Assembly (NCBI GenBank): GCA_016933175.1
Contig: JAFGBK010000011.1
Location: 1,254 to 65,253, forward strand
Direction of reading: 5' to 3'
Origin: Candidatus Krumholzibacteriota bacterium
GTDB taxonomy: Bacteria > Krumholzibacteriota > Krumholzibacteriia > JACNKJ01
DNA: 64,000 nt
The position numbers and the translations under genes are program-made. Within the stretch, counting starts at the first letter, position 1. Each line of letters begins with the position of its first letter. Under the pieces are notes generated by a model. That model worked only from the letters and a program-made list of their open reading frames with translations. It ran no database searches and was not told where the DNA came from. Positions 2,133 through 64,000 of the stretch are shown piece after piece.

Positions 2133-2271
2133 GAGAACTCCTTGGGCTGGCGGGGCGGGAAATCGCAGCCTGGTGCGGCTGAAAGTAAGCGCACCGCCGC
2201 GCGCCGGTCAACGGGATTCCCCGGCTTGGCCGCGCCACTGGCCTCTGCTAGGATGCGGGCGAGGAGGAAAC

Positions 2272-6146: not shown

Positions 6147-8741
6147 TCAGTGGACGGTGAGGAAGGGTTCGGTCAGCCCCGGCTCCCAGTAGAGGAACTG
6201 CTCGCCGGGGAAGGGCGTCAGGCGGGCGAGCCAGTCGGCCGGCGACTCGCCGGGCCGGGGCAGGACGCTCGGAGCCGGAGGCGCCGGCGTCTCGGCTTCG
6301 CGCAGCCGGCCCGGCAGGCGCCGGCGCAGCCGCTCGACCAGGCCCGATCGGGGCGGGGGCGGGAAGGCTTCCAGGTTGAGCGGACCGTTCCTCCCGAGGC
6401 CGGCCTCCTCGCGCGCCAGATCCAGGGCCCGCCCCAGGCCGCCGACCTCGTCGGCCAGGCCTGCCGTCACGGCCGCCTGGCCGTCCAGGATGCTGCCGCG
6501 ACCGTAGAGAGCGTCGAGCTCGACGTCGGCGATGTAGCGGCTGTGCGAAACCTGCTCCATGAGCAGCCAGTAGCGGCGGCTCATCTCCTGGCGCAGCAGC
6601 TCCCGCTCCTCGCCGCTGAAGGGCGAATGGGGGCCGCGCAGGCCCGCATGGGAGCCGAGGGTGGTGGTGGCGACGTCCAGGCCGAAGCGGCCGTAGAGGT
6701 CGCGGCCCAGGAACTTCCCGCCCAGGACGGACAGCCCGCCCACCCGCGAGCCGGGGCTGGCGAAGAGCCGCTGGCCGGGCAGGGCGGCCAGGTAGGCACC
6801 GCCCGCCGCGGCATTGCCCAGGGAGACGACCACCGGCTTGCGGTCTTGGGTCAGCTCCACCTCGCGGCGGATGGCCTCGCTGGCCAGGGCGCCGCCGCCG
6901 CCGCTGTCCACCCGCAGGAGGATGGCCGCCACGCTGCGGTCGCGGCGGGCCGCGCGGAGGGCCGCCGCCGCGTCCTCCGTGCCCGTGCGCGGCCCCAGGA
7001 ACCCGTATCCGCCGTGGCCGAGAACCAGATCGCCCACCAGCGTGACCAGGGCGATGCGCGGCGCCGCGCCCCAGTGCCGCTTGCTCTCGGTGCGCGCGGC
7101 GAAGTCGGCGGCCGCGAGGACGCGGTCGGTTCCCCCGGCTCCGGCCAGGATGCCCGGCATCTCGTCCAGGCGGCGCTGCTGGTCCACGAGGCCCTTCTCG
7201 ATGGCTAGGTCGGGCAGGAAGCGGCCCTGCTGCAGGTGGCGCTCGGCGCGGTGCCGCTCGATACCGCGGGCGTCGGCCACGGCGTCGCGCAGCTGGCGGA
7301 AACGCCCGGCCACCGCGAGGCTGTCGGCGGCGCGCTGGGTGAAGTCGGGCTCGGTGCGGGTCAGCGTGGCCAGGGCCGCGCTCCGGTCGCCGTACTGAAG
7401 GAAGCGTGGCTCCAGACCCAGCGAATCGAGGGCGCCGCCGAGGAAGACCCGCTCGCGGCGCAGCCCGGTGAGCCAGAGTTCGCCGGTGGTGTCGACGACC
7501 AGGTGGTCGGCCGCCGTGGCCAGGGCGTAGCTCTCCAGGGCGTAGCTGCTGGAATAGGCGACCACGGGCCGTCCCGTTGCCCGGCGGTAGTCGAGCAGGG
7601 CCTCGCGCAGCTCGTCCGCCTGGGCGTCGCCCAGGCGCGGATCCTCCAGGCGCAGGTAGATGCCGGCCACGTCCCCCGCGCGCCGCGCGCGCAGGATGAG
7701 GGCGATCAACTCGGTCTGGGACGGCGGCCGCTCGCCGAGGCGGCCGGGCCCGGCCTTCTCGGGCACGCGGCCCGCGATGCGCAGCTCGAGGAAGCGCTGG
7801 CGGGGCCACAGCGGCGGGCCGAAGTCGCGGCTCCGCCACTCGACACCAGCGCCGCCATAGCTGGTGCCGCGGCTGGCGGTCATCTGGTTGCTCAGGCCGC
7901 CCAGGCCGCGCCAGCGGCCGCGGCTGGCGAAGAGCCCCACGGAGATCCGGCCCTCGTCGTCGCGATCCAGGCGCAGGTCCAGCCGACCCCGCAGGCTCAG
8001 GTCGAGCCCGACATGGGGGTGGGCTTCCCACCGCCGGTCCACCTCCACCTGGTGGATGTCCAGGGAAACCGTCGCCCACTCGAGGCGAGGGCGCACGGCC
8101 AGGGAGTAGACATAGTCGGGGGCCAGCTCACCGCCGGAGCCCGGCCGGGTGGCGCGCTGGAGGGGGCGGTTGAGGTTCCGGCCGCTGAAGCCCAGGGAGA
8201 ACCAGCGGCGCCAGCGGTAGAGCAGGCCGAGGTCCCAGCCGCCCATCTTGGTCAGGGCGTAGGCGTCGCTGCGGGTCCAGCGATAGGCCGCGCCCAGAGC
8301 CACCTCGCTGTCCAGGCGCGGGAAGTAGAGCCGGTGGCCCAGGCCGAGGTTGAAGCGCCAGTAGCCGCGCCAGATGGCCCGCTGGTCGCCGCTGTCCAGG
8401 TCCGTGTCGAAGCCCGCCACGCCCCTGCCGTAGTCGACGCCGAAGGCCAGGGGGCCGCCGACGGCCAGGCTCCAGTTGCCCGTCAGGAGCGAGCCGAACT
8501 CGCCCGCCAGGGCGGGATCGTCGTTGGCGCCGCGCAGGCCCTGCAGGTAGAGGACGCCCCATTCGCCGGGGCGCATGGCCAGTCCCGCCGGATTGTGGTA
8601 GAGGGCATCCAGGCCGTCGTTGCCGGCCACCGAGAAGGGAAGCAGGTAGGGATCGTTGCCGGCGAGGGGATGTTCGTAGAGCTGGGCGGATGCGGGGGCG
8701 GAGAGGAGGAGCAGTGCACCGAGTAGCGGACCCTTCTTCAA
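6147..8741 (-). CDS. Tandem S49 (SppA-type) serine peptidase fused to an N-terminal secreted FadL/PorV-like beta-barrel-like domain
   Basis: Likely TTG start at about 8741 (AAAGGTGGTG RBS) giving MKKGPLLGALLLLSAPASAQ signal. N-terminal domain carries YHNPAGLA (FadL/TodX/PorV-type motif) and amphipathic strand pattern. Two S49 domains (VVAYSSSYALESYALATAADHLV; VVVSLGNAAAGGAYLAALPGQRLFASPGSRVG). Confidence 0.7.
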   Translation of the reverse strand: MKKGPLLGALLLLSAPASAQLYEHPLAGNDPYLLPFSVAGNDGLDALYHNPAGLAMRPGEWGVLYLQGLRGANDDPALAGEFGSLLTGNWSLAVGGPLAFGVDYGRGVAGFDTDLDSGDQRAIWRGYWRFNLGLGHRLYFPRLDSEVALGAAYRWTRSDAYALTKMGGWDLGLLYRWRRWFSLGFSGRNLNRPLQRATRPGSGGELAPDYVYSLAVRPRLEWATVSLDIHQVEVDRRWEAHPHVGLDLSLRGRLDLRLDRDDEGRISVGLFASRGRWRGLGGLSNQMTASRGTSYGGAGVEWRSRDFGPPLWPRQRFLELRIAGRVPEKAGPGRLGERPPSQTELIALILRARRAGDVAGIYLRLEDPRLGDAQADELREALLDYRRATGRPVVAYSSSYALESYALATAADHLVVDTTGELWLTGLRRERVFLGGALDSLGLEPRFLQYGDRSAALATLTRTEPDFTQRAADSLAVAGRFRQLRDAVADARGIERHRAERHLQQGRFLPDLAIEKGLVDQQRRLDEMPGILAGAGGTDRVLAAADFAARTESKRHWGAAPRIALVTLVGDLVLGHGGYGFLGPRTGTEDAAAALRAARRDRSVAAILLRVDSGGGGALASEAIRREVELTQDRKPVVVSLGNAAAGGAYLAALPGQRLFASPGSRVGGLSVLGGKFLGRDLYGRFGLDVATTTLGSHAGLRGPHSPFSGEERELLRQEMSRRYWLLMEQVSHSRYIADVELDALYGRGSILDGQAAVTAGLADEVGGLGRALDLAREEAGLGRNGPLNLEAFPPPPRSGLVERLRRRLPGRLREAETPAPPAPSVLPRPGESPADWLARLTPFPGEQFLYWEPGLTEPFLTVH

Positions 8742-33647: not shown

Positions 33648-33901
33648 CCGGCCCGGGAGCCCGACCGGCGCGAAGCGCCGGAATTCGGGGTTGCCCCGGC
33701 GCCGCCGATGCCCCATCTTCAAACGGTGAACGGCCTTCCGCGGTCCGCCGCCGGCGGGCGGCGCCCTTGACAGTCCTCCGGGCGAAGTGCTAGTGCTTAC
33801 CGGCTCCGGGCTGCGGAATGCCGCAAGCATCCGATACACCGAGACTTTCGTTGCCGATCCCGATTCCCACTGCCGGAGTCGCCTTGCCGAGGGGGAAGTC
33901 C

Positions 33902-41507: not shown

Positions 41508-42024
41508 TCTGGCGGCGCGGCTGGCCCAGGTGCGCCTCCTCGTCTTCGACGTGGACGGCGTGCTCACCGACGGCACCATCACCATCTCGGGCGCGCGGCG
41601 CTGGTCCGTCACCGACGGCTTCGGCTTCCTGCTGGCCCGGCGCGGCGGACTCAAGACCGCCCTGTGCAGCGGCCGGAACGATCCCGAGATCGAGGCGCGC
41701 GCCGAGCGCCTGCGCATCGACGCCCTGCGCCTGGGGCGCATGGACAAGGGCGCCGGCGTGACGGAGCTGGCCGCGGAGCTGGGCGTGACGCCGGCCGAGA
41801 CCCTCTTCGTCGGCGACGACCTGTTCGACCTGCCGGGCCTGGCCGCCGCCGGCGTGGCCGCCGTGCCCGCCGACGCCCGGCCCGAGCTGCGCCGGCGCGC
41901 GGACTGGGTCCTGTCTGCGCCCGGCGGACGGGGCGCCGCCCGGGAGGTCATCGAGGCCGTGCTCCGCGCGCGGGGCGACTGGGAGCGGGTCCTGGCCGAG
42001 TTCACGGGAGGCGGCGATGACTGA
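41494..42024 (+). CDS. kdsC: KDO 8-phosphate phosphatase (HAD superfamily)
   Basis: LLVFDVDGVLTDG HAD motif I; KdsC-size (176 aa). Confidence 0.8.
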   Translation: MPFPDLAARLAQVRLLVFDVDGVLTDGTITISGARRWSVTDGFGFLLARRGGLKTALCSGRNDPEIEARAERLRIDALRLGRMDKGAGVTELAAELGVTPAETLFVGDDLFDLPGLAAAGVAAVPADARPELRRRADWVLSAPGGRGAAREVIEAVLRARGDWERVLAEFTGGGDD

Positions 42025-43015
42025 GGATTCCCGGCAGGAGGACCTGGCGCGCGGGCGCGAGGTCTTCGCGCGGGCGCAGGAGGCCCTGGCCGCCGTCGCG
42101 GCGCGCCTGGACGAGGACTTCGCCCGCGTGGTGGCGCTCCTGGCCGGCTGCGAGGGCCGCGTGGTGGTCACCGGCCTGGGCAAGTCGGGCCACGTGGCCG
42201 CCAAGCTCGCCAGCACCCTCAACTCGACGGGCACGCCGGCGGCCTTCCTCCACGCCGCCGAGGCCACCCACGGCGACCTGGGCTTCATCCGCGGCGAGGA
42301 TGTCTGCATCATCGTCTCCAAGAGCGGCGCCGGCGAGGAGCTGCGCGCCTGGATCCCCTTCCTGCACGGGCGCGGCTGCCCGGTGGTGGCCATCACCGGC
42401 GCCGGCGACTCCTACCTGGCGCGGGAGGCGGACTACGTGATGGACGCCGCCGTGCCCACCGAGGCCTGCCCCTACAACCTGGCGCCCACGGCCAGCAGCA
42501 CCGCCGCCATGGTGCTGGGGGACGCCCTGGCCATCGCCCTCCTGGAGCGGCGCGGATTCGGCCCCGAGGAGTTCCTGCGCTCCCACCCGGGCGGCGTCCT
42601 GGGGCGGCGGCTCACCCTCCGGGTGGAGGACCTCATGCACCGCGGCGACGAGCTGCCCTGGGTGACGCCCGGCGCCAGCCTGCGCGACACCCTGATGGTC
42701 ATCATCCGCCGCGGCCTGGGCATGGCCTGCGTCATGCCGGAACCCGGCGGGCCTCTCCTGGGCGTGCTCACCGACGGCGACCTCAAGCGCCTGCTCGTGG
42801 ACGGCGAGGGCGACGGGCTCATGGACCGGCCCGCGGGGGATCTCGCCTCCCCGGATCCACGCACGGTGCGTGCCGGCACCCTGGCCACCGACGCCCTGAC
42901 CATGATGGAGGCGAACCAGCCCGGGCCCATCACCAGCCTGGTGGTGGTGGACGCGGCGGGCGCCGTGCTCGGTGTGGTGCACATTCATGACATCCTGCGC
43001 GCCGGGCTCAGCTAA
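42017..43015 (+). CDS. kdsD: Arabinose-5-phosphate isomerase (SIS + tandem CBS)
   Basis: SIS VVVTGLGKSGHVAAKLASTL; C-terminal CBS pair. Confidence 0.85.
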   Translation: MTEDSRQEDLARGREVFARAQEALAAVAARLDEDFARVVALLAGCEGRVVVTGLGKSGHVAAKLASTLNSTGTPAAFLHAAEATHGDLGFIRGEDVCIIVSKSGAGEELRAWIPFLHGRGCPVVAITGAGDSYLAREADYVMDAAVPTEACPYNLAPTASSTAAMVLGDALAIALLERRGFGPEEFLRSHPGGVLGRRLTLRVEDLMHRGDELPWVTPGASLRDTLMVIIRRGLGMACVMPEPGGPLLGVLTDGDLKRLLVDGEGDGLMDRPAGDLASPDPRTVRAGTLATDALTMMEANQPGPITSLVVVDAAGAVLGVVHIHDILRAGLS

Positions 43016-43117
43016 TCGAATTCATGACAACGGATTGAGACCTTCCACTTCACGCCGGGCCCATGCCCCGCCGCGCCTCGGCGCTCACGTAACTTTCTCA
43101 TCATATCTCATCGTTCC

Positions 43118-43161
43118 TGGCATAAGCATTGCTTGACAACACCTTCCCACCTCCCTATCAT
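43118..43161 (+). promoter_or_regulatory. Overlapping candidate sigma54 (-24/-12: TGGCAT-N5-TTGCT) and sigma70 (TTGACA-N17-TATCAT) promoters upstream of lptC-lptB-rpoN
   Basis: TGGCAT 43118-43123, TTGCT 43129-43133; TTGACA 43133-43138, 17-nt spacer, TATCAT 43156-43161; in an AT-richer 200-bp gap. Confidence 0.45.
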
Positions 43162-43220
43162 CCCAGCGAACGAGCGAAGCTCTCACTGTAACTCAATGAA
43201 GTTCAAAGGAATACGCTGAT

Positions 43221-43808
43221 TTGCACCCGGACCGCCGCCACTCGCCGCCACGCTGGGCCAGGATGGGACCGGTCCTCCTCGTCCTGCTCGCTGGGGCCTG
43301 CTCCAAGGAGGCCGTACCGCCGGTGCTCGAGGAGCCCGGGGAGGCACCGGACCAGATCATCTGGGATTTCACGACGACGGAATCGGACTCGGGGCGCCTG
43401 ATCTGGGTTCTGAAGGCGCAGCAGGCCCGCGTCTTCAACACGCGCAAGGAGGTGGAGGCGACGGCCCTTCGTGTCGATATGTATGGGGAGCAGCGCACCA
43501 TCACCTCCACCCTCACGGCAGACTCGGGCGTCATCGACCAGAGGACCGGCGCCATGACCGTCAGCGGGCGCGTGCACGTGCGCAGCCACGAGGGCTACGA
43601 GCTGTTCACCAGCGTGCTGCACTGGGACAAGCGGCGCGAGATCTTCCGCACGGAGGCCTTCGTCGAGGTGCACCACGGCGACAACCTCTACACGGGCTAC
43701 GAGATGGAATGCGATCGCAACCTCGACCACCTGAGCATCCAGCGGGAACCGCGCGGCGTCATCGTCGGCTCGCCGGTCCTGGACGACGAGGAGGCCGACC
43801 GTGACTGA
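43221..43808 (+). CDS. lptC: LPS export protein LptC-like (lipoprotein form)
   Basis: LptC/OstA-like beta-jellyroll; lipobox LLAGACS (alternative start at 43263 MGPVLL); position between kdsD and lptB. Confidence 0.65.
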
Positions 43809-44541
43809 CGGGCGCCGGGACGCCGTGCTGCGGGGCAAGGGCCTCGTGAAGAGCTACGGCCGCCGCCGCGTGGTGGACGACGTGACCCTCACCCTGCGCC
43901 AAGGGGAAGTGGTGGGCCTGCTGGGACCCAACGGCGCCGGCAAGACCACCACCTTCTACATGATCGTCGGGATGATCCGGCCGGACGCCGGCTCCGTCCA
44001 CGTGGACGACACGCCGATCCACCACATGCCCATGTACCGGCGCGCCCGGCTGGGCATCGGCTACCTGAGCCAGGAGGCCTCGGTCTTCCGCAAGCTGAGC
44101 GTGGAGGACAACCTGATGGCCATCCTGGAGACCCTGCCGATCCCGCCGGAGGAGCGCCTGCGGCGGCGAGAGAACCTGCTGGCCGAGCTGGGCATCGAGC
44201 ACGTCCGCAAGAACCAGGGCCACCAGCTCAGCGGCGGCGAGCGCCGGCGCGTGGAGATCGCGCGCGCGCTGACCAGCAAGCCGCGCTTCATCCTGCTGGA
44301 CGAGCCCTTCGCCGGCATCGACCCCATCGCGGTCGGCGACGTGCAGGCCATCATCGGCCAGCTGAAGGAGATGGGGCTGGGCATCCTGATCACGGACCAC
44401 AACGTGCGGGAGACGCTCAGCATCACGGACCGCAGCTACATCCTCTTCGAGGGACGCATCATTCGCGCCGGCACGGCGGAGGAACTGGTCCGCGACGAGA
44501 GGGCGAGACAGGTCTACCTGGGCGAAAGCTTCAACTTGTGA
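43801..44541 (+). CDS. lptB: LPS export ABC transporter ATP-binding protein
   Basis: Walker [25 protein letters not shown], Walker B ILLDEP. Confidence 0.9.
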
Positions 44542-44557
44542 GCGCGAGAGTCTTGCC

Positions 44558-45940
44558 ATGGAAATGAAGATGAACCTGCAGCTGCGCCAGCGTCAGCAGC
44601 TCGTGATGACGCCGCGGCTGCAGCAGGCCCTGAAGCTGCTGCAGCTGCCAACGCTGGAGCTGGAGCAGGTCCTCAAGAACGAGGTCCAGGCCAACCCCCT
44701 CCTGGAGATCGAGGAAGACGACGACGACGAGCAGGACCGCGCGCAGCGGGAGCACGCGGACGAGCCCCAGGCGGGCAACCTCGACAACTGGGAAGACATC
44801 TTCAACGACGGCTTCGACATGCAGTACCAGGAGAAGGAGGATCTGTCCGAGGACTTCGTGGAGCGCGTGCCCGTGCACCGCCAGTCGGCCGGGGACAAGC
44901 TCCAGCGCCAGCTCCGCATGGTCACCAGCGACGCCGAGCTGCTGCGCATCGGCGAGTACATCATCGGCAGCCTCGACGACCGCGGCTTTCTCACGGTGGG
45001 GCTCGACGAGATCCGGAACGTCTTCCACATCGGCGAGAGCCGCGCCCGCGAGGCGCTGATCCTGGTGCAGAGCCTGGAGCCGCCGGGGATCGCCGCCCGC
45101 GACCTGCCCGAGTGCCTGCTGCTGCAGCTGGCGGCGCGGGGCATGGCCGACAGCCTCGTGGCGCGCATCATCCGCGACCACTTCAAGGAGCTGATGCAGC
45201 GCAAGTACCAGGAGATCGCCCGCAAGCTGAAGCTGGGGGTGGAGGAGGTGCAGGAGGCGGCGCGCTACATCGGCGAGCTGGATCCCAAGCCAGGCCTCGA
45301 GCTCAGCAGCGAGGAGCCCCACTACATCATCCCCGACCTGGTGGTCGAGGAGGTGGACGGCGAGTACGTCATCTACCTCAACGACCGCCACCTGCCGCGG
45401 CTGCGCATCGCCGACAGCTACAAGGACTACCTGCGCAAGGCCAGCAAGGACACCAAGGACTACGTCCAGGGCAAGCTGAACCAGGCGCAGTGGCTGATCC
45501 GCACGGTGGAGCAGCGCCGGGCGACCATGGTGAAGGTCATGGCCGCCATCATCGAGGAGCAGAGCGACTTCTTCGAGAGGGGCCCGCAGGCGCTCCGCCC
45601 CCTGACCCTGCAGCAGGTGGCCAGCAAGATCGGCATGCACGAGAGCACGGTCAGCCGCGTCACCAACAACAAGACCGTGCAGACGCCCCGCGGCATCTTC
45701 CAGCTCAAGTACTTCTTCTCCAGCTCCCTCAGCACCGAGGACGGGGAGGAGGTCAGCGCCAAGGCGGCCAAGAGCCGCATCCAGGAGATCGTTTCCAAGG
45801 AGGAGAAGAAGCGGCCCCTCAGCGACCAGAAGATCGCCGACATCCTGCGCCAGGAGGGACTGATGATCGCCCGCCGCACCGTGGCCAAGTACCGCGAGCA
45901 GCTGGGCATCCTGCCGGCGCGCCTGCGCAAGGAGTTTTAG
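44558..45940 (+). CDS. rpoN: RNA polymerase sigma-54 factor (true start may be the MNLQLRQ Met at 44570)
   Basis: N-terminal LQLRQRQQLVMTPRLQQALKLLQLP; C-terminal RpoN box ARRTVAKYRE. Confidence 0.9.
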   Translation: MEMKMNLQLRQRQQLVMTPRLQQALKLLQLPTLELEQVLKNEVQANPLLEIEEDDDDEQDRAQREHADEPQAGNLDNWEDIFNDGFDMQYQEKEDLSEDFVERVPVHRQSAGDKLQRQLRMVTSDAELLRIGEYIIGSLDDRGFLTVGLDEIRNVFHIGESRAREALILVQSLEPPGIAARDLPECLLLQLAARGMADSLVARIIRDHFKELMQRKYQEIARKLKLGVEEVQEAARYIGELDPKPGLELSSEEPHYIIPDLVVEEVDGEYVIYLNDRHLPRLRIADSYKDYLRKASKDTKDYVQGKLNQAQWLIRTVEQRRATMVKVMAAIIEEQSDFFERGPQALRPLTLQQVASKIGMHESTVSRVTNNKTVQTPRGIFQLKYFFSSSLSTEDGEEVSAKAAKSRIQEIVSKEEKKRPLSDQKIADILRQEGLMIARRTVAKYREQLGILPARLRKEF

Positions 45941-46083
45941 GGCGTGCTGGGCCTTGCCGCCCCGGGAGCCCGCAGCTATGCTTGGTGCGGAGCCTGGCCG
46001 CCCGACCGACGCGCCCGGAGGCTGGATGAGCCGTCGCCCCGCCATCGCGTTCCCCGGAAAACCAGACGACCGATCGCGCCCGT

Positions 46084-46108
46084 CCCCCGCCCGGGGGCGG
46101 GCCCTTTT
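46084..46108 (+). terminator. GC-rich hairpin (CCCGCCC/GGGCGGG) + TTTT between rpoN and hpf; candidate terminator/attenuator
   Basis: Direct reading; 25 nt upstream of hpf RBS. Confidence 0.4.
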
Positions 46109-46133
46109 GCGTGAAGTGAAAGGAGACTCGAGG

Positions 46134-46700
46134 ATGCAGATCACGGTCACCGGCAAGAAGCTAGACCTGACACCGGCCATTCGCAGCTACGCCGAGGAGA
46201 AGATCGGCAGGCTGGACAAGTTCGTGGACGGAGTCCGCGAGGCCCACGTCCTGCTGCGGGTGGAGAAGCATCGTCACATTGCCGAGGCCACGTTGAGGGG
46301 GAAGAGCGCCGACTTCTCGGGCAAGGAGCACAGCGAGGATCTCTATGCCGCCATCGACCGCCTCGCCGACAAGCTCGAGAGCCAGATGCGCAAGTTCAAG
46401 ACGCGCACCCTCAACCGCCGCAAGGGCGGCAAGCCGGGCGCCCGCACCAGCACCGCGGACTTCAGCACCGGCACCATCACCATCCTGGGCGAGGTCGAGG
46501 TCGGCGAGGAGGAGGCGCCGCGCCCGGTTATCGAGGAGAAGTTCATCACGCTCGACCAGCTGACGGTCGAGGAGGCCATCAGCCGCATGGAGGTGCACGA
46601 CAGCCACTTCTGGGTCTACAGCGACGCGGCGGAGGGCCGGATGTGCGTCGTCTACCGCCGCAGCGACGGCCACTACGGCCTCATCCAGGCCGAGGCCTAG
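46134..46700 (+). CDS. hpf: Ribosome hibernation promoting factor (long form)
   Basis: AAAGGAG RBS; MQITVTGKKLDLTPAIRSYAEEKIGRLDKF; C-terminal dimerisation domain. Confidence 0.85.
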   Translation: MQITVTGKKLDLTPAIRSYAEEKIGRLDKFVDGVREAHVLLRVEKHRHIAEATLRGKSADFSGKEHSEDLYAAIDRLADKLESQMRKFKTRTLNRRKGGKPGARTSTADFSTGTITILGEVEVGEEEAPRPVIEEKFITLDQLTVEEAISRMEVHDSHFWVYSDAAEGRMCVVYRRSDGHYGLIQAEA

Positions 46701-46709
46701 GGGGCGGCC

Positions 46710-47693
46710 GTGGAGATCGTCGAGCGGAACCTGCCCGTGGCGCGCTTCGTGGCCGAGACGGCCGAGCTGCTCGGCCTGCGGCTCGTCGGCGTCAGCCCCG
46801 AGTCGGGCACGGACATCACGGTGCCGGAGGTCTCGCGCCCGGGCTTCGTGCTGACGGGCTTCACGGACAAGTACCAGCACGAGCGGATCCAGATCCTCGG
46901 CGGGGCGGAGTTCTCCTTCCTGGAGACTCTGCCCCGCGACGAGGTGGCCGGGGCCATCGCCCACCTCTTTTCCCGGCCCGTGCCCTGCTTCATCGTCACC
47001 CGCGGCCAGGAGCCCTTTCCGGAACTGGTGCAGCAGGCCCACGAGCACGGCGTGCCCCTGCTGGTCACCGAGCAGCACACGACGCGCTTCATCCGGGCCC
47101 TGACGGGCTACCTCGAGGACTTCTTCTCGCCGCGGGGCAACGTCCACGGCTCGCTGGTGGACGTCTACGGCGTCGGACTCCTCGTCACCGGGCCCAGCGG
47201 CATCGGCAAGAGCGAGATCACCCTGGATCTGGTCGAGCGAGGCCACCGCCTCGTGGCCGACGACGTCGTCCAGCTCATCCGGCGCGGCGGCGTGCTCATC
47301 GGCCGCGGCAACGAGTTCCTCAAGCACTTCATGGAGATCCGCGGCGTCGGCGTCATCGACGTGCGCGAGATGTTCGGCATCCGCGCCATCCGCGTGCAGA
47401 AGCGCGTGGAGGTGGAGGTGCGCCTCGAGCGCTGGGTCCAGGGCAAGCACTACGACCGGGCCGGCCTCGAGTACCAGACCAGCCCCATCCTCGGCGTGGA
47501 GATCCCCAACGTGGTGCTGCCGGTGACCCCGGGCAAGAACGTCACCGTCATCGCCGAGACCATCGCCATGAACCACATGCTCAAGGTCTACGGGCTCAGT
47601 CCCGCCGAGCGCTTCAACCGCCAAGTCATGGAGGGCCTGGCCCGCCGCAACGAGGCCCGCGTCTATCACTACCTGCAGCAGGACGAGGAGTGA
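46710..47693 (+). CDS. hprK: HPr kinase/phosphorylase
   Basis: P-loop GPSGIGKSE, HprK C-terminal domain. Confidence 0.85.
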   Translation: MEIVERNLPVARFVAETAELLGLRLVGVSPESGTDITVPEVSRPGFVLTGFTDKYQHERIQILGGAEFSFLETLPRDEVAGAIAHLFSRPVPCFIVTRGQEPFPELVQQAHEHGVPLLVTEQHTTRFIRALTGYLEDFFSPRGNVHGSLVDVYGVGLLVTGPSGIGKSEITLDLVERGHRLVADDVVQLIRRGGVLIGRGNEFLKHFMEIRGVGVIDVREMFGIRAIRVQKRVEVEVRLERWVQGKHYDRAGLEYQTSPILGVEIPNVVLPVTPGKNVTVIAETIAMNHMLKVYGLSPAERFNRQVMEGLARRNEARVYHYLQQDEE

Positions 47694-47766
47694 GCCTGGG
47701 CTTGACTTCTCGCCGGGCAGACCGGACAATCCCCGCGTTCACGACTCCAGGCACACGGAGAGGACC

Positions 47767-48156
47767 ATGATCCCGGCCGTCATCGTCTGTCACGGCGCCC
47801 TCGGCGAAGCCTACCTGGAGGCGCTGGCGGGCATCTACGGCGAGGTCACGGACGTCGCGACCGTCACCAACGAGGACCTCGGGGCCGAGGAGCTGGAGTC
47901 GGCGGTGGCCGCGTCCCTCGAGCGCCTGGCGGGCGGCGGCATCGTCTTCACCGATTACTTCGGCGGCAGCTGCGCCAACGCCTGCCTGACTCTCCTGCCC
48001 GCGCGGCCGGCGGTGCGCCTGATCAGCGGCGTCAATCTTCCCGTGCTGCTCTACTACCTGGCCCACCGGCACGAGCTGGGCATGGACGAGCTGGTCCGGG
48101 GCATCGTCAACCGGGGTCACAACTCCATCCGGGAGCTGAGCCCGCCCGTCCTCTGA
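47767..48156 (+). CDS. PTS EIIA component, mannose/fructose/sorbose family
   Basis: VIVCHGALGEA (phospho-His region), GVNLPVLL; EIIA-Man fold size. Confidence 0.7.
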   Translation: MIPAVIVCHGALGEAYLEALAGIYGEVTDVATVTNEDLGAEELESAVAASLERLAGGGIVFTDYFGGSCANACLTLLPARPAVRLISGVNLPVLLYYLAHRHELGMDELVRGIVNRGHNSIRELSPPVL

Positions 48157-48169
48157 GGGCAGGGAGGCC

Positions 48170-48607
48170 GTGGATCTCCACCTGGATGATCGCCTGCTGC
48201 ACGGCCGCATCCTCCATGGCTGGGGACGGAGGCTTGGCGCCCGGCGCTATGTGCTGGTCATCCCGGCGGCCGGCGATCCCGCCCGCCGCGCCGTCTACGC
48301 GGCCGTGGCGCGCGAGGCCGGCGCCGAGCTGGTCCTCGCCGCGGCCGACGCGGCGCCGGCGCCCCGGGCCGGCGACTTCTGGCTGGCCGATGGGCCCGCC
48401 GCGGCCCTGGCGCTGTGGCGGGCCGGGCGGCGCTACCGGCGGCTGATCCTCATCGGGCTGCGCCGGTCCGCGGGGCGCCGCCTCGGACCCGATATCACGG
48501 CCGACGAGGCCGACCTGGACGCCCTGCGCGCCCTGCAGGCCGCGGGCGTGGGCTGTGAACGGCGGCGCTTTCCGGACGAGGCCGGGGAGCCGCTGCCGCC
48601 CCTCTGA
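48170..48607 (+). CDS. PTS EIIB component, mannose/sorbose family (divergent)
   Basis: GTG start; N-terminal LDDRLLHGRILHGW matches EIIB-Man RIDDRLIHGQV phospho-His motif. Confidence 0.55.
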   Translation: MDLHLDDRLLHGRILHGWGRRLGARRYVLVIPAAGDPARRAVYAAVAREAGAELVLAAADAAPAPRAGDFWLADGPAAALALWRAGRRYRRLILIGLRRSAGRRLGPDITADEADLDALRALQAAGVGCERRRFPDEAGEPLPPL

Positions 48608-57490: not shown

Positions 57491-58582
57491 TCAGCGGCTG
57501 GCGCGCGCCAGGAAGCCCACCCCCGCCAGGAGGAAGACGAAGTTGGCCGACCAGGCGGCGAGCAGGGGGGGCAGGGTCTGGTTGTGGCCCAGGGAGATGC
57601 CGATGCGGATGAAGATGAGGTAGACGAAGGCGATGCCCACCGTCAGGCCGAAGCCCGCCGCCATGGAGATGCGCCGCTTCTGCGCGCTCAGGGCGGCTCC
57701 CAGCAGCACGACGATCAGGTTCGCCCAGGGGTAGCTCACCTTCATGTGCAGATCCACCCAGAGCCGGTCGGCCTGCTCGCCGGAGTGGGTCTGCGTGAGG
57801 ATGTGCTCGCGCAGCTCGCCGTAGTCCATGGCCTCGGGCTTCTTCTCCTCGCGGATGAAGTCCAGCGGCTGTTCGGGCAGGCTCAGATCCAGGTGCTCGA
57901 AGTGCTGCGTGCCCGTCTCCGGCCGGCTGCCGTCGGCGGTGGTGGCGAAGCGGTGGTGGTAGCCCTCCACCAGGCGCCACTGGCTGCCGCTCCAGAAGGC
58001 GTGGCGCGCCGTGTAGCTCTCCCGCAGGCTGTCGCCGCGGTAGCGCAGCAGCACCAGGTTCTCGAAGCGCTGCTGGGCGACGAAGTAGGCCTCCGCCCAC
58101 CAGAGCGTGCCGTCGGCGCCGACCTTGTGCACCAGGCGCCGCACGTCGTGGCTGGCGCGCGGCTCCTTGTTCACCTCGTGCCGCTTGAGATCCTCCAGTG
58201 CCAGGTTGCTCTGCGTCACCACGCGGTCATTGAAGTAGTAGCTGCCGAGGCTGATCAGGGCGCCGAAGGCGAGCAGGGGCAGCAGCAGGCGCGGCAGGGG
58301 CACGCCGGCGGCGAGCGCCGCCGTCAACTCGCGGTCCCGCGACAGGCGGCCGATGGTGAACAGGCTGGCCAGCAGCATGGCGATGGGCAGGACGAGCACG
58401 ACGATGTAGGGTGTCTTGAACAGGTAGAGCCGCGCCACGGTCCAGGCGGTGGTGCCCTTGTCGATGTAGTCGCCGATCTTCTCGAAGAAGTCGATGACGA
58501 GGTAGATGAGCAGGAAGGCGACCAGGCCGAGGGCGAGGGCCTTGGCGAACTGCGTGAGCAGGTAGCGGTCGAGGATCTTCAT
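57491..58582 (-). CDS. lptG: LPS export ABC permease, LptF/LptG family
   Basis: Start MKILDRYLLTQF; 6-TM permease with periplasmic jellyroll insert. Confidence 0.7.
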   Translation of the reverse strand: MKILDRYLLTQFAKALALGLVAFLLIYLVIDFFEKIGDYIDKGTTAWTVARLYLFKTPYIVVLVLPIAMLLASLFTIGRLSRDRELTAALAAGVPLPRLLLPLLAFGALISLGSYYFNDRVVTQSNLALEDLKRHEVNKEPRASHDVRRLVHKVGADGTLWWAEAYFVAQQRFENLVLLRYRGDSLRESYTARHAFWSGSQWRLVEGYHHRFATTADGSRPETGTQHFEHLDLSLPEQPLDFIREEKKPEAMDYGELREHILTQTHSGEQADRLWVDLHMKVSYPWANLIVVLLGAALSAQKRRISMAAGFGLTVGIAFVYLIFIRIGISLGHNQTLPPLLAAWSANFVFLLAGVGFLARASR

Positions 58583-59982
58583 GGCGCCCGCCGCCGCCGC
58601 GTTTCCCGCCAACCCAGGACGCGGGTGAGCAGGGAGAAGGGCCGGCTCTCGCGGTTGGTCCAGACCAGCAGCCAGGCGCCGAAGGCGATGAGCAGGATGT
58701 TCGGCGTCCACATGGCCAGCCAGGGCGCGAGGTACTGCCGGTCCGCCAGCTCCTCGCCGCCCACCAGGAAGACGTAGTAGATGGTGAACAGCAGCAGGCT
58801 GAAGCTGATGCCCCAGCCCGTCCCGCCCCGCCCGGTCTTGATGGCCACCGGCGCGCCGAGCAGGATGAAGACGATGCAGGAGACGGGGATCGCGACCTTC
58901 TTGTGGATCTCCACCTCGTAGCGCAGGATACGCCGCTCCACCGAGGCCTGGCTCAGCTGCAGGTTCACCAGGCTGCGCAGGGTGTTCTCCTCCTCCTGGA
59001 TCCGCGTCGCGTTCGTGCGCGGGCGACCGCGGCGGCCGGCGCGCAGGCTGTCGGGGGACGCATCCTTGGCGCGCAGGTAGCTCTCCCGCGCGGCGGGCGC
59101 CAGGAGGGCCAGGGTGCGCTCGATCTGCCCCTCGGCCTCGGCGCCCAGGCGCTCGTCCAGCCGCGACAGCTCCTCGCGGTGCCGGACGATCTTGTCCCGC
59201 ATCATGCCCATCGACATCTCCCGGTCGCCGCGGTGTTCGTGCTCCTGGCGCCGCAGGCTGCGGTCGATGTCCCGCAGCAGGATGTTCATGCGATCGAAGA
59301 CCGTGATCTGGAAGCGGCGCGGGCTGGCCAGGTCGGCCTCGAACTGCTCGCCGGTGCGCAGGACCATCATCAGCAGGTTGCTGGCCTCGTCGTGGACGAA
59401 GTCGGCCTCGCGGGCCGCGATGACGGTGGGATTCTGACCTCGCTCCTCGCGGTAGATGCGCAGCTGATAGAGGCGGCCGGTGGCCTCGTCCTTGCGCTCG
59501 GCGTAGAGGGTGTAGCCGGGGATGGACGTGATGAAGCGGCGCGGCTTGATGTCCAGGGCCGGCTTCTTGGTGCGCACGGCCATGAGCAGGTTCTTGAGGC
59601 GGTGGTTGGTCTCGGGCAGGACGTTGTTGTGGAAGCCGAACAGCAGGATCGTCACGGCCAGGGCGGCCAGGAAGGGGCCGGAGACGATGCGGTAGAGGCT
59701 GATGCCGCCCGAGCGCATGGCCGTGATCTCGTTCTCGGCCACCATCTGGGAGAAGGCCATCATGGTCGCGACCAGGACGGCCATTGGAATGGTTAATGCA
59801 AAAATATGCCCGAGGCTGAGCAGAATCAGCTCCGCGACCACCATGACCGGCACCTTGCTGACCAGGAAGAGCTCCAGGAAGGAGTAGAAGATATCGATCA
59901 CGAAGACGAACGTGAGGACCGATAGCCCGAGGAAGAAGGGTCCCACATGGTTGCGGAGAATATAGCGGTCGGCCAGCCTCAT
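58579..59982 (-). CDS. lptF: LPS export ABC permease, LptF/LptG family (with extended periplasmic/coiled insertion)
   Basis: MRLADRYILRNHVGPFF; overlaps lptG start by 4 nt. Confidence 0.7.
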   Translation of the reverse strand: MRLADRYILRNHVGPFFLGLSVLTFVFVIDIFYSFLELFLVSKVPVMVVAELILLSLGHIFALTIPMAVLVATMMAFSQMVAENEITAMRSGGISLYRIVSGPFLAALAVTILLFGFHNNVLPETNHRLKNLLMAVRTKKPALDIKPRRFITSIPGYTLYAERKDEATGRLYQLRIYREERGQNPTVIAAREADFVHDEASNLLMMVLRTGEQFEADLASPRRFQITVFDRMNILLRDIDRSLRRQEHEHRGDREMSMGMMRDKIVRHREELSRLDERLGAEAEGQIERTLALLAPAARESYLRAKDASPDSLRAGRRGRPRTNATRIQEEENTLRSLVNLQLSQASVERRILRYEVEIHKKVAIPVSCIVFILLGAPVAIKTGRGGTGWGISFSLLLFTIYYVFLVGGEELADRQYLAPWLAMWTPNILLIAFGAWLLVWTNRESRPFSLLTRVLGWRETRRRRAP

Positions 59983-60231
59983 CTGTTTCCTCTTTTGGGA
60001 CAACGACTTAACTGGAAGGGCGAGTGTACGTTACCCCTGCTCACCCCGACAAGGGAATAATGGGCCGCCGGACCCGCTCCGTCGAGCGGTGACGGGGGCC
60101 GACCCTCCCAGCGGCACGGCGCGGACGCGCGGCCCCGGCGCGACCGGGATGGAGCCTGTCCTCCGTTCGGGACAGCCGCGTCCACTCGGGGAGACAGTAC
60201 GCCCGGCCGCTGCCGTGAGGAAGGCCGCCCG

Positions 60232-63200
60232 ATGACCCGACCGCGGAAGCCGCAGCGCACCCGTCGCCGTTCCGGTGCGCTCCTGGCGGCGGCGCTGCTG
60301 CCGGGCCTCCTCCTCGCCGCCGGCGCCGCCCGCGCCGATCTGCTGCCCCCGCCCGAAATCCCCCGCTTCGGCCTCTATGCCGCCTGGCTGGAGGAGCGCC
60401 TCTACGCCCGCGAGGGCTGGGTGCTGGGCATGAACGCGCGCCACTGGCTGCCGCCCGACCTGCTGCCGCGGGGCTGGGACGACTACTGGACCGACGAGGT
60501 CCGGGTCCTGCCCGAGACGGACCTGGTGCTCTGGCTGCGCCGGCCCGCCATTCTCGCCCGCCTGGCGCCCCTGGCCGGCGGCGCCGATCCCTTCGGCAAC
60601 GCCGTGCGCGCCGCCTGGCCGGGCGTCCAGCGCCGCGAGCTGCTGCCCCGGCAGGCCTTCCTGGAGCGCACCCTGCGCGAGCGCCAGCGCCGCCTGATCC
60701 TGGACAAGGCCGCCCAGACGCGCGCGGTGGTGGCCCAGGAGGGCGCCCGCGGCTCCCTCATCGACATCACCATTCCCCTGAGCCTGCCCAGGAGCATCGA
60801 GCGCGTGGTGGGCCGCGGCGAGAAGAGCAACATCACCGTCACCGGCCGGGAGTCCATCACCTTCAGCGGGGAGACGACGCGCACGAACAAGTTCCTCGCC
60901 GACGAGTCCGGCCGCGGCCAGCCCCTGTTCCCCCGCCTGGAGATGAAGCAGGACCTGCAGGTGAAGCTCAGCGGCACCGTCGGCGAGAAGGTCCACGTCG
61001 AGGTGGAGAACAACAGCCTCGTCACGGGCGAAGGCGCCAACAAGATCCGCATCCGCTACGAGGGCGACGACGACGAGATCATCAAGCTCATCGAGATGGG
61101 CGACACACAGCTCAGCCTGCCCAGCTCGGGCCTCATCAGCTACTCGACCACCAACAAGGGCCTCTTCGGCATCAAGGTCCTGGGCAGCCTCGGGCCCCTG
61201 GACTTCACGGCCATCGCCAGCAAGCAGGAGGGGGAGCAGTCCAGCCGCACCTTCAACAACACCGGCTCGGTGGTGCAGAGCGACTACGTGGCCGACACCG
61301 GCTTCCTCGCCAACCAGTTCTTCACCCTCGACCATCCCGTCCAGGCCTCCCAGCCCGGCGCCTGGACCGTCGATCCCGTCACCCTGCACGTGTTCGTGGA
61401 CGACCTGCTGCCGCCCAGCCCCCAGGGCGAGGTCCAGTACGCCGCCTTCCTCTACGTGGACCTCGACGGCGACGGCCTCGGCGACGAGGCGGTGATCGAG
61501 GGCGGCGTCAGCAGCTTCCGGCTTCTCGATCCGGAGATCGACTACCAGGTCTGGCGGGACACCAACGGCAACTTCCGCGCCATCCAGCTGAACTCCCCTC
61601 TCCAGGAGAGCCACGTGCTGGCGGTCAGCTACGAGGCCTTGGACGCCGACAGCGTGCGCCACGCCGTCGGCACCGTGACCCTGACCGGCGTGCCGGGCTG
61701 GTTCTCCATCGAGGACATCGACGTCCTGGAGCCCGGCGATCCCGAGGCGCTGCAGCTCGAGCTGATCAAGCCCGAGAACTACACGCCCGAGAGCCCCACC
61801 TGGGACTACATGATGCGGAACGTCTACCGGCTCGGCGGCCGCAACATCGACTACAGCAGCCTCGAGGTGGAGGTCCACCGCATCAGCACGAGGCCGGATC
61901 CCTCGCACCCGGTGGACAGCAGCGTTCCCTATCTGCGCGCCTTCGGCCTGGACCAGAGCGCCGCCGACAACAATCCCGACACCTTCGGCCACGACGGCAA
62001 GGTGGACGCCTTCTGGGTGGACGCCGGTGAGGGCCTGCTCTTCTTCCCCCATTACCGGCCCTTCGATCCGCCGACGGCGCTCGTGAGCGACTGGACGCGC
62101 GCCTCGGAGGCCGACACCGCCAACGCCTTCGCCCTGGCGGCGACCGACCTGAACGCCTCCCTGTACGACGTGCCGCGGCGCGAGCTGCTCAAGAACCCGG
62201 CCTACAGCAAGTTCCTGATCCGCTTCAGCAGCTCCACGGTGGCCAGCCGCTTCAACCTGAACGCCTACGACATCCTCGACGGCAGCGAGGTGGTCATCCT
62301 CGACGGGCGCCAGCTCTCGCGGGGAACGGACTACCAGATCGACTACTTCTCCGGCGAGGTGGAGCTCGTCGGCAACGCCGCCGCCACGCTGACGCCCGAC
62401 AGCCGCGTGTCCATCACCTACCAGTACCAGCCCCTGTTCGGCGGCGGGAAGAGCAACCTCGTCGGCCTGCACGGCACCTACAACTTCGGCGAGAAGAACA
62501 AGGTCTCCAGCGCCTGGCTCTACGAGTCGCGTTACAGCGGCGCGCGCCGCCCGCGCCTCGGCGAGGAGAGTACGCGCAACGTGGTGGGCAACGTGCTGGG
62601 CAACTTCAGCGTCGAGCCGGCCTTCCTGACCCGGGCGGTCAACTGGCTGCCCCACGTGGACACCGACGCCCTGAGCACGGTCAACCTCAGCGGCGAGCTG
62701 GCGGTGAGCTTCCCCAACCCCAACGTGGACGGCGCCGCCTACCTGGACGACATGGAGGGCGCCGAGGACGCCGACGAGCTGAGCCTGCACCGCACCCAGT
62801 GGTTCCTGGCCAGCGAGCCCGCCGACGTCATCCGCGTGCCCGGCGGCGCCGACATCCCCGTGCTGCCGGCGGCCCGTGCGACCTACCCCTACTGGTTCCA
62901 TCCGCAGGGCACCACGCGGCGCGGCGACTTCAACCTGAACCTGCCGTCCCAGGAGGCCGAGGAGGTGGTGGAGGTCCTGCAGCTCAAGGTTCCCGTCAAC
63001 CTGACGGCCGCCCAGGAGGAGGCCTACCCGCCCCTGGCTGCGGTCAGCGCGGCCAACGAGGCCCTGGGCGACTCGATCTGGATGGGCCTGATGCGGGGCT
63101 TCGCCGGCGAGGGTCTGGACCTGAGCGAGGCCGAGTACCTGGAGATTTGGGTCAACGACTTCCAGCAGGATCCGGACACCCGCACGGGCCGCATCCACTT

Positions 63201-64000
63201 CGACATGGGCGACATCGACGAGGACTTCTGGAATCCGGATCTGGACATGCTCGACACCGAGGACCGCATCAACCGCGGCGTCTTCGACGAGCTGGAGGAG
63301 GACACGGGCCTCGACGGCGTGTACAGCAGCGGCGAGGGCACGCCCGTGGGACCCTACAGCAGCACCGGCGATCCGGCCGGGGACGATTACGACGCCGGCA
63401 AGCAGAGCGAGGTCTTCGGCAACGCCTACTTCAAGGTCAACGGCATGGAGGGCAACCGTCGCCTCGATTCGGAGGACCTGGACCGGGACGGCCAGCTCGA
63501 CACGCGCAACGCCTACTACTCGCTGGACGTCGGACTGGCCGACGAGCCGCTCATCGACATGGTCCAGGTGACCCTGGACGAGACGGGCGTGACGCCCACC
63601 AACTACAAGGCCTGGCGCCTCTACCGCCTCAAGCTCAGCGACGCCCGCCGGATCAGCGACGGCGTCCAGCAGCCGGACTGGACACGCATCAAGTACTTCC
63701 GCTTCTGGCTGGAAGGCATGAACCGGCCCGGCCAGGACCCCGCGCGCCCGCTGAACACCCTCGAGATCGCCAAGATCAAGGTCGTCGGCAACCGCTGGAA
63801 GACCCATGGCATCCAGGACGCCGCCACCGGCCTGACCCTCGCCCCGACGGAGCTGGCGAGCGGCGAGGTCGCGCGGGTCGAGGTCATCAACACCAAGGAC
63901 AACGCGAACTTCATCTGGCCCTTCGGCGAGGAGATCGACCCGGAGACGGGCCTGCCCGAGCGGGAGCAGGCCCTCAACTTCGTCTACGAGAACCTGGCGC
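60232..64000 (+). CDS. sprA: T9SS translocon / gliding-motility protein SprA (Sov), N-terminal about 1256 aa; continues past window end
   Basis: My own translation: signal peptide MTRPRKPQRTRRRSGALLAAALLPGLLLAAGAARA, then SprA-characteristic NKIRIRYEGDDDEIIKLIEMGDTQLSLPSSGLISYSTTNKGLFGIKVLGSLGPLDFTAIASKQEGEQS; frame open to base 64000. Absent from ORF track (no stop in window). Confidence 0.8.
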   Translation, partial: MTRPRKPQRTRRRSGALLAAALLPGLLLAAGAARADLLPPPEIPRFGLYAAWLEERLYAREGWVLGMNARHWLPPDLLPRGWDDYWTDEVRVLPETDLVLWLRRPAILARLAPLAGGADPFGNAVRAAWPGVQRRELLPRQAFLERTLRERQRRLILDKAAQTRAVVAQEGARGSLIDITIPLSLPRSIERVVGRGEKSNITVTGRESITFSGETTRTNKFLADESGRGQPLFPRLEMKQDLQVKLSGTVGEKVHVEVENNSLVTGEGANKIRIRYEGDDDEIIKLIEMGDTQLSLPSSGLISYSTTNKGLFGIKVLGSLGPLDFTAIASKQEGEQSSRTFNNTGSVVQSDYVADTGFLANQFFTLDHPVQASQPGAWTVDPVTLHVFVDDLLPPSPQGEVQYAAFLYVDLDGDGLGDEAVIEGGVSSFRLLDPEIDYQVWRDTNGNFRAIQLNSPLQESHVLAVSYEALDADSVRHAVGTVTLTGVPGWFSIEDIDVLEPGDPEALQLELIKPENYTPESPTWDYMMRNVYRLGGRNIDYSSLEVEVHRISTRPDPSHPVDSSVPYLRAFGLDQSAADNNPDTFGHDGKVDAFWVDAGEGLLFFPHYRPFDPPTALVSDWTRASEADTANAFALAATDLNASLYDVPRRELLKNPAYSKFLIRFSSSTVASRFNLNAYDILDGSEVVILDGRQLSRGTDYQIDYFSGEVELVGNAAATLTPDSRVSITYQYQPLFGGGKSNLVGLHGTYNFGEKNKVSSAWLYESRYSGARRPRLGEESTRNVVGNVLGNFSVEPAFLTRAVNWLPHVDTDALSTVNLSGELAVSFPNPNVDGAAYLDDMEGAEDADELSLHRTQWFLASEPADVIRVPGGADIPVLPAARATYPYWFHPQGTTRRGDFNLNLPSQEAEEVVEVLQLKVPVNLTAAQEEAYPPLAAVSAANEALGDSIWMGLMRGFAGEGLDLSEAEYLEIWVNDFQQDPDTRTGRIHFDMGDIDEDFWNPDLDMLDTEDRINRGVFDELEEDTGLDGVYSSGEGTPVGPYSSTGDPAGDDYDAGKQSEVFGNAYFKVNGMEGNRRLDSEDLDRDGQLDTRNAYYSLDVGLADEPLIDMVQVTLDETGVTPTNYKAWRLYRLKLSDARRISDGVQQPDWTRIKYFRFWLEGMNRPGQDPARPLNTLEIAKIKVVGNRWKTHGIQDAATGLTLAPTELASGEVARVEVINTKDNANFIWPFGEEIDPETGLPEREQALNFVYENLA

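Follow-up and report, generated by a model that had tools for sequence, protein, structure and literature searches.

A SprA/Sov-family gene divergent from lptF–lptG in a very GC-rich Krumholzibacteriota-like genome

[quoted passage not shown] Their hallmarks are a 36-strand barrel with a lateral opening and an extracellular cap, a Sec signal peptide, a length of ~2000–2500 aa and the C-terminal β-signal of outer-membrane proteins (OMPs), and to our knowledge their function has been tested only in Bacteroidota and Fibrobacter. The structurally defined translocon is F. johnsoniae SprA (PDB 6H3I/6H3J, 8GL6–8GLN), which shares the TIGR04189 family with the gene described here; the same NCBIfam equivalog model also covers Sov of Porphyromonas gingivalis, the second orthologue to have been studied by experiment. 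SprA has been described as FCB-specific (PMC12611786) and the Krumholzibacteriota have been placed within the FCB superphylum (10.1101/2023.07.10.548433). Our literature search returned no paper on T9SS in Latescibacteria, Eisenbacteria or Krumholzibacteriota; SprA genes are already known and annotated in Krumholzibacteriota metagenome-assembled genomes (MAGs), which makes the finding described here correct but ordinary.

The DNA analysed is a single 64 kb stretch (the window), whose final part, 60232–64000, we take with a probability of about 0.9 to encode the N-terminal ~59% of a SprA/Sov orthologue, the outer-membrane pore of the T9SS, in a Krumholzibacteriota-like genome (Table 1).

Table 1. 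Positions of the features discussed, in window coordinates
Feature	Position	Strand	Description
Barrel–SppA protein	6147..8741	-	Secreted, 864 aa; FadL/PorV-fold barrel plus tandem-S49 SppA module; outside the sprA locus
lptG	57491..58582	-	363 aa; PF03739; 4-nt overlap with the lptF stop
lptF	58579..59982	-	467 aa; LPS export ABC permease; PF03739; divergent from sprA
lptF–sprA spacer	59983..60231	.	249 bp, divergent; two clade-conserved blocks (alignment A1, 7 clade loci)
Tandem inverted repeats	60158..60197	+	GTCC-N8-GGGACAG and GTCC-N7-GAGACAG (alignment A1)
Shadow ORF	60031..63807	-	1258 aa; not a gene; no Pfam/NCBIfam match; dN/dS 1.40
sprA/sov, 5′ 59%	60232..64000	+	1256 of ~2108 codons, cut by the window end; open frame, TIGR04189, 6H3I, dN/dS
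Predicted Sec signal peptide	60232..60336	+	35 aa, ...AGAARA/DLL; by eye from the translation

The sprA reading frame and its family

One + strand frame is free of stop codons from 60061 to base 64000, and its first ATG, at 60232, opens the 1256-codon stretch that the initial annotation had reported. The GC content of its codon positions (0.68/0.46/0.95) is typical for genes of the window, which is 72.5% GC overall. A ribosome-binding site, GAGGAAGG, lies 7 nt upstream of the ATG, the same start is called on an identical Logan contig (L001), and in the contig of a relative at 90% identity (L053) the gene call begins at the equivalent ATG. Comparison with the 90% relative gives a dN/dS of 0.33, indicating purifying selection, with substitutions at codon positions 1, 2 and 3 numbering 77, 65 and 154, so that the third position dominates. 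Read by eye, the N-terminus is a predicted Sec signal peptide, MTRPRKPQRTRRRSGALLAAALLPGLLLAAGAARA/DLL, as had been proposed, and hydrophobic N-terminal leaders are found in all the SprA relatives compared. The + strand frame is thus a real gene under purifying selection with a predicted signal peptide.

The sequence that follows the leader had been ascribed to SprA/Sov, and this is borne out by NCBIfam model TIGR04189 (T9SS outer membrane translocon Sov/SprA), which scores 400.6 bits (E = 1.4e-119) on the 59% fragment against a curated equivalog cutoff of 200 bits, set as a whole-protein score; relatives of full length reach 548 and 625 bits. The Pfam model PF14349 (SprA_N) reaches only E = 0.075 on the fragment, whose match breaks off with the window end, at model position 248 of 510, while the complete 90% homologue P0024 matches it with 71.5 bits over residues 1079–1489 (cutoff 27). 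We therefore reject the Pfam miss as a sign of non-membership and regard it as an effect of truncation. A phmmer comparison of the fragment with chain 6H3I_A gave three colinear stretches (E = 1.9e-40, 142 bits), and a profile built from 27 homologues aligned with the same chain in a single stretch spanning SprA residues 75–2046 of 2403 (E = 1.4e-191), colinear over 85% of the solved protein. SprA was the sole match of this profile in the PDB, and PDB searches with either the fragment or the family profile matched no Sov chain. The sequence shares little identity with F. johnsoniae SprA, and ~150 residues at the N-terminus and the final ~200 positions of the profile are unaligned. These matches make the window gene a member of the SprA equivalog family, colinear with the F. 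johnsoniae protein of known structure.

Its relatives provide a view of the whole gene. The SprA homologues P0024–P0040 are 53–90% identical over the entire fragment, are 2089–2183 aa long and match PF14349. P0024, from L053, is intact and complete at 2108 aa, and in a further 90% relative (L021) the frame is intact for 2097 codons up to the contig end. All complete homologues end in a ...x-F motif, the terminal Phe typical of OMPs. Genome and metagenome scans yielded no 100% match, the 90% relatives being the best, an exact look-up of LptF matched only one 3.4 kb Logan contig, and the window genome is absent from the GTDB species representatives scanned. Identical sequence is present in SRR13394437, and 90% relatives in ERZ27252234 and Ga0272443. 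Two homologues at ~60% identity (P0035 and P0036) carry the NCBI name 'cell surface protein SprA' and come from Candidatus Krumholzibacteria/Krumholzibacteriia bacterium. The names attached to these homologues make the host a probable relative of Candidatus Krumholzibacteriota, uncultured and very GC-rich (72%).

Two readings would deny this gene its status. The antisense frame at 60031..63807 might be taken for the real gene, and the + frame for its shadow, from the mechanical ORF list, which has no other entry over the sprA region. The ORF lister leaves out by design any ORF that runs off its source, however, and this is why sprA is missing from the track; the omission is a listing artefact. 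The initial annotation had already called the listed frame an antisense shadow. The antisense translation is rich in Ala, Gly, Val and Arg, of low complexity and without a family match in Pfam or NCBIfam, its dN/dS is 1.40 in the comparison that gives 0.33 for sprA, substitutions favour third codon positions of the + frame, and gene callers on related contigs choose the + gene. With the TIGR04189 match, the 6H3I match and the dN/dS of the + frame, the antisense gene is refuted, and we give it practically no chance. It is also very improbable that sprA is a pseudogene disrupted past the window end: the 3′ 41% does lie beyond the window, but the 1256 visible codons contain no stop or frameshift, comparison with the 90% relative shows purifying selection and the frame is intact in both 90% relatives. 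A practical lesson is that an ORF truncated by a window end goes unseen in the track and that, in high-GC DNA, a misleading antisense shadow is left in its place.

Gene order and the lptF–sprA spacer

Upstream of sprA, and divergent from it as had been described, lie two genes matching PF03739, lptF with E = 1.3e-84 and 285 bits and lptG with E = 1.4e-82 and 278 bits (cutoff 27.9). The best NCBIfam matches are to the equivalogs TIGR04407 (LptF) for the first gene and TIGR04408 (LptG) for the second, as expected, each at 206 bits and each under its equivalog cutoff (230 and 240, respectively). On L001 lptF is called identically and lptG is also called.

The order lptG–lptF, then divergently sprA–M28 peptidase–rimP–nusA–infB, is common to Krumholzibacteriota-like, Latescibacterota and Eisenbacteria loci, with ~30% protein identity for the lptG–lptF/sprA–M28 block across these three candidate phyla. 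The synteny around sprA extends through rimP–nusA–infB–rbfA–truB, genes without an envelope role, and because the block also holds these genes the gene order looks inherited rather than functional. On our reading the position of sprA is an ancestral arrangement shared with Latescibacterota and Eisenbacteria, in which relatives have the M28 peptidase and then rimP–nusA–infB after sprA. A literature search found no paper linking lptFG with sprA.

Within the spacer, the two tandem inverted repeats are 22 nt apart and lie 35–75 nt upstream of the sprA ATG. Their half-sites are invariant and their spacers variable among the seven clade loci of alignment A1, and the pattern occurs once, in the same place, in each of these (7/7) and in none of 41 other loci. 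From this conservation, the repeats are a candidate operator or 5′-UTR element. The spacer gives no support for a structured RNA or for a riboswitch, as Rfam gave nothing at gathering score or E ≤ 1 and the RNA fold z-score was +0.27. Neither a sigma-70 consensus promoter nor a terminator was found in the spacer.

The type IX secretion context

Among the ~60 ORFs of the window, Pfam and NCBIfam identify no T9SS family besides SprA. The core genes gldK/L/M/N (porK/L/M/N), porV, porU, sprE/porW and sprT/porT are all absent from the 64 kb, and, in agreement with the initial annotation, no window ORF matches a type A or B C-terminal sorting domain (CTD; TIGR04183/PF18962 and TIGR04131), including the secreted-looking proteins at 900–2207, 3779–5236 and 33794–35875. 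No tRNA genes were found in the window. T9SS genes are usually scattered around the genome, so the absence of partners from one window says little. The claim of a T9SS in a high-GC lineage outside the Bacteroidota is supported: the translocon gene and the GC content stand, while the window offers no further component, and we infer a complete system from SprA, the only part of it visible here.

If the system works as in Bacteroidota, from which the following steps are taken (Lauber et al. 2018 and 2024; PMC10994853), SprA would be exported by Sec and inserted in the outer membrane by BAM, where it would pass folded cargo bearing C-terminal sorting domains out of the periplasm. A PorV-type carrier would assist it, and a GldLM/PorLM motor driven by the proton-motive force would power export, both presumably encoded elsewhere in the genome.

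It is improbable that the protein, although a true SprA-family barrel, acts outside a canonical T9SS as an outer-membrane channel that stands alone or has other partners, perhaps in another envelope role. Such a channel would fit a 64 kb window free of other T9SS genes and CTD cargo, a clade whose SprA is ~300 aa shorter than that of Bacteroidota, and an lptG–lptF/sprA–M28 arrangement kept across three candidate phyla, which hints at an envelope role. The dispersal of T9SS genes makes absence from one window weak evidence, however, the presence of rimP–nusA–infB–rbfA–truB in the block again points to inheritance, and a TIGR04189 score twice the cutoff together with colinearity over 85% of solved SprA argues for the T9SS pore.

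The initial annotation had also pointed to a FadL/PorV-like::S49 fusion elsewhere in the window and suggested a T9SS link. The fusion is real: a 14-stranded barrel of FadL/PorV fold (approximately residues 60–325) is joined to a 67K-type SppA module whose tandem S49 domains have lost the Ser/Lys catalytic dyad. For the T9SS link, neither gene context nor sequence models give support. A word-indexed homologue search with the barrel domain alone gave no match and a barrel profile search recovered weak stand-alone barrels without fusions, whereas an exhaustive HMMER scan did recover fusions, which form a rare family with members, such as P0010, that retain the dyad. One could imagine that lptG–lptF/sprA–M28 and the inverted repeats form a functional module that ties the regulation of LPS export to the building or use of the T9SS pore, with the barrel–dead SppA protein as a possible lineage-specific carrier of, or receptor for, substrates of the T9SS or others of the envelope; we consider this unlikely.

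Comparison with known SprA systems

Taken as the SprA orthologue that we favour, the window gene adds one further divergent, very GC-rich member to a family that the literature already has FCB-wide, and alters nothing conceptually. The synteny block, the upstream inverted repeats and the barrel–SppA fusions may be of modest use for work on T9SS evolution and envelope proteostasis outside the Bacteroidota.

The gene resembles most closely the homologues P0024–P0040, among them the PGAP-annotated Krumholzibacteria SprA proteins P0035 and P0036, with which it shares the lptG–lptF/sprA neighbourhood, continued by M28–rimP–nusA in relatives, and, to judge from its 90% relative, the length class; its genome differs in GC content (72%, against 59% for L002 and L004). 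With F. johnsoniae SprA it has in common the predicted signal peptide and, in its complete relatives, the giant size and the C-terminal OMP Phe. It differs in length, the 90% relative having ~2108 aa against 2403 aa, some 300 residues below Bacteroidota SprA, and in its first ~150 residues, which are clade-specific. The partners of the F. johnsoniae protein, PorV, Plug, PPI, SprE, PorD and Skp, are not seen with the window sprA, which lies beside the lptF–lptG pair, as it does in its relatives.

The sprA reading frame and its product

A plus-strand frame of 1256 codons, starting with the ATG at 60232, has no stop before the window ends, as the initial annotation had claimed; it lies within a stop-to-stop frame that begins at 60061. 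Its GC content at codon positions 1/2/3 (0.68/0.46/0.95) is the pattern of genuine genes in the window, which has 72.5% GC overall; a Shine-Dalgarno sequence (GAGGAAGG) lies 7 nt 5' of the ATG, and the same start is called on the identical Logan contig L001 and in L053, a relative with 90% identity. Read by eye, the N-terminus looks like a Sec signal peptide (MTRPRKPQRTRRRSGALLAAALLPGLLLAAGAARA/DLL). The gene was correctly described as missing from the ORF track, since the ORF list leaves out frames that run past the sequence edge; the sole ORF listed over the region lies antisense and has no family match in Pfam or NCBIfam. Comparison with the 90% relative L021 reveals 77/65/154 substitutions at plus-frame codon positions 1/2/3, with a dN/dS of 0.33 for the sense frame versus 1.40 for the open antisense frame. 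Plus-strand sprA is a real, constrained gene and the antisense ORF is, as had been proposed, a shadow.

Against the NCBIfam equivalog TIGR04189 (T9SS outer membrane translocon Sov/SprA), whose curated cutoff is 200 bits, the fragment reaches double that value (400.6 bits, E=1.4e-119). It also matches the SprA of known structure from Flavobacterium johnsoniae (6H3I_A) in three ordered stretches (E=1.9e-40). With a profile built from 27 full-length homologs the match becomes a single stretch covering SprA residues 75–2046 of 2403 (E=1.4e-191), SprA being the only PDB protein matched. Pfam initially missed the fragment because the window end cuts the PF14349 domain, of which only the first third is present (E=0.075). 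That this miss might indicate a protein other than SprA is ruled out by the complete 90% homolog P0024, in which PF14349 scores 71.5 bits (cutoff 27) at residues 1079–1489. Complete SprA relatives are 1956–2183 aa in length and all end in an outer-membrane-protein C-terminal motif (...x-F). As far as the sequence allows, then, similarity to SprA HMMs is present and no downstream frameshift was encountered, the frames of the 90% relatives being intact (open for 2097 codons to the contig end in L021, 2108 aa in P0024 on L053); the stop of the window gene should lie ~2.56 kb past base 64000. The window contains an unremarkable, truncated orthologue of sprA; we regard the observation as confirmed and its interpretation as SprA as supported.

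Gene order and the lptF–sprA spacer

The divergent orientation of sprA and lptF-lptG is as first described. Of 47 related loci searched by tblastn with the window proteins, 42 have lptG and lptF in this orientation directly upstream of sprA; 41 of these are distinct, L005 and L024 being the same contig. This order, which extends to Latescibacterota and Eisenbacteria loci at 30–40% identity, is not a local accident. Three of the other five loci have too little upstream flank to judge and two, WOR-3-like (L014 and L016), are without lptFG.

Features in the window and in related loci
Feature	Position	Strand	Remarks
Omp85/BamA-like candidate	900-2207	-	436 codons
FadL/PorV-like::S49 fusion	6147-8741	-
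Lipoprotein-like ORF	33794-35875	+
kdsA to PTS cluster	40413-48607	+
lptG	57491..58582	-	clear PF03739; below NCBIfam equivalog cutoff; 4-nt overlap with lptF
lptF	58579..59982	-	clear PF03739; below NCBIfam equivalog cutoff
Second conserved block	59997-60058		next to lptF
Antisense ORF	60031..63807	-
Inverted repeat 1	60158-60175	+	GTCC-N8-GGGACAG
Inverted repeat 2	60180-60197	+	GTCC-N7-GAGACAG
M28 peptidase, L053	9115-10002	+
M28 peptidase, L008	15866-16810
M28 peptidase, L009	15372-16496
M28 peptidase, L022	16342-17238

On the other side of sprA, a gene for an M28-family peptidase (PF04389, E ~1e-31) follows directly in at least 18 loci across phyla; its product clusters in 17 loci. In L053 it begins 9 nt past the sprA stop, and the two genes may be co-transcribed. 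In relatives the peptidase gene is followed by rimP-nusA-infB-rbfA-truB. Because the conserved lptFG-sprA-M28-rimP block includes translation genes with no role in the envelope, we take it to be a gene order passed down within this section of the FCB group; that lptFG and sprA form a functional, operon-like LPS–T9SS unit is an unlikely second reading of the same conservation.

Two of the loci with lptFG and sprA in Eisenbacteria-like order, L007 (DATKKS010000025.1) and L020 (DASQBE010000153.1), are filed under MAGs labelled Candidatus Saccharimonadales and Candidatus Binatia. Neither LPS export nor an outer membrane is expected in Saccharimonadia, and these therefore look like mis-binned contigs. 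The window LptF, at 467 aa, exceeds the 353 positions of the Pfam model through an insertion of ~85–100 residues, charged and coiled-coil-looking, at about residues 240–345; this seems to be conserved in this part of FCB, since relatives are similar in length (465–483 aa).

The 249-bp spacer between lptF and sprA contains two blocks that are conserved in the Krumholzibacteriota-like clade (a label taken from the names given to homologs and from their percent identity rather than from a marker phylogeny), even though the flanking proteins are only 53–64% identical. Both blocks are present in all seven clade loci and absent from the 41 others. One comprises two tandem inverted repeats, 22 nt apart, upstream of sprA. 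A single occurrence of the repeat-pair pattern in the window is in itself within chance (expected 0.57), but the pattern is found once per clade locus, at the same position (7/7), and in 0/41 other loci. The half-sites are invariant, and the bases between them vary; the lptF–sprA spacer has no match in Rfam and folds no better than shuffled sequence does (z=+0.27). The repeats are therefore more readily seen as a protein-binding operator, candidate and unproven, than as a structured RNA.

Secretion partners and the S49 fusion

The analysis shows that the protein belongs to the SprA family, has a signal peptide (by eye), is under purifying selection and is encoded by an intact, full-length gene in its near relatives; further steps in the mechanism we infer by homology from work on F. 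johnsoniae (6H3I; PMC10994853). SprA would be exported by Sec and inserted by BAM, its barrel forming a large pore through which folded substrates with a C-terminal sorting domain, bound to a PorV-type carrier, would exit, with the GldLM/PorLM motor energising their release. As noted at the outset, no protein with an obvious sorting domain is present in the window, and no T9SS partner genes or cargo domains were found among its ~60 ORFs, which are housekeeping in character (purB/L/Q/F, tldD/pmbA, a GH57 enzyme, ptsI, metK, ahcY, kdsA-kdsC-kdsD-lptC-lptB-rpoN-hpf-hprK-PTS and others). A complete, as yet unverified, T9SS is likely in this genome.

The kdsA cluster, with a HAD/kdsC gene second and PTS EIIA/EIIB genes last, has a classical, Proteobacteria-like order; it is ordinary and confirms an LPS-bearing diderm envelope. 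Another ORF encodes a lipoprotein-like product (...AAGCSDE) in which a long acidic stretch is made up of repeats of the DxDxDG type and a PD40/TolB-like propeller forms the C-terminus; no T9SS sorting domain was detected in it. The 900-2207 product has a signal peptide (...GGAAA/QTR) and, by eye, beta-barrel-like sequence after a POTRA-like start; with no Pfam or NCBIfam match at E<=0.01, it may be a divergent Omp85/BamA-type protein.

The most unusual object met, though outside the coordinates of the sprA finding, is the fusion protein. The last 450 residues form a tandem-S49 SppA of the 67K type (PF01343 twice; TIGR00705, E=3e-52), whilst the N-terminal ~330 residues, after a signal peptide, have no Pfam or NCBIfam match. 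HMMER, run exhaustively over 1.84 billion representatives, identified no more than 23 relatives of the N-terminal domain: four at 41–87% identity and ~12 at 25–30%, nearly all 798–864 aa with the same two-part architecture. The suggestion of a FadL/PorV-like barrel was right at superfamily level, without PorV orthology being established, and a link to T9SS is not supported: none of the gene contexts (window, P0002, P0010) contains T9SS genes. These contexts (ArsR-DUF2087 / fusion-prmA in the window and P0002; lspA, an M50 protease, the fusion, two M16 peptidases and skp in P0010) point instead to envelope protein processing. Unexpectedly, the window protein and three of the four relatives closest to it have lost the catalytic pair, with Gly in place of E. 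coli Ser409 and Ser in place of Lys209. P0002 and 11/11 distant members retain both residues, and the window fusion is probably a non-catalytic derivative.

Lineage and known SprA proteins

Krumholzibacteriota have been placed in the FCB superphylum beside Latescibacteria and Delphibacteria (10.1101/2023.07.10.548433). The GC content of the window is unusually high for this group; it is 59% in the relatives L002 and L004. Many T9SS papers still term the system Bacteroidota-specific and others accept a wider distribution; in the literature available to us, no paper deals with a T9SS of Krumholzibacteriota, Latescibacterota or Eisenbacteria. Neither the GTDB species representatives nor the JGI metagenome contigs contain a 100% match. 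Remoter SprA relatives come from Latescibacterota (39% identity) and Eisenbacteria (~31%), and homologs at 58–68% identity include proteins from Candidatus Krumholzibacteria / Krumholzibacteriia bacterium (P0035, P0036) named by NCBI as 'cell surface protein SprA'. With the SprA name already in public annotation of this lineage, the window gene adds to those known, as one more member.
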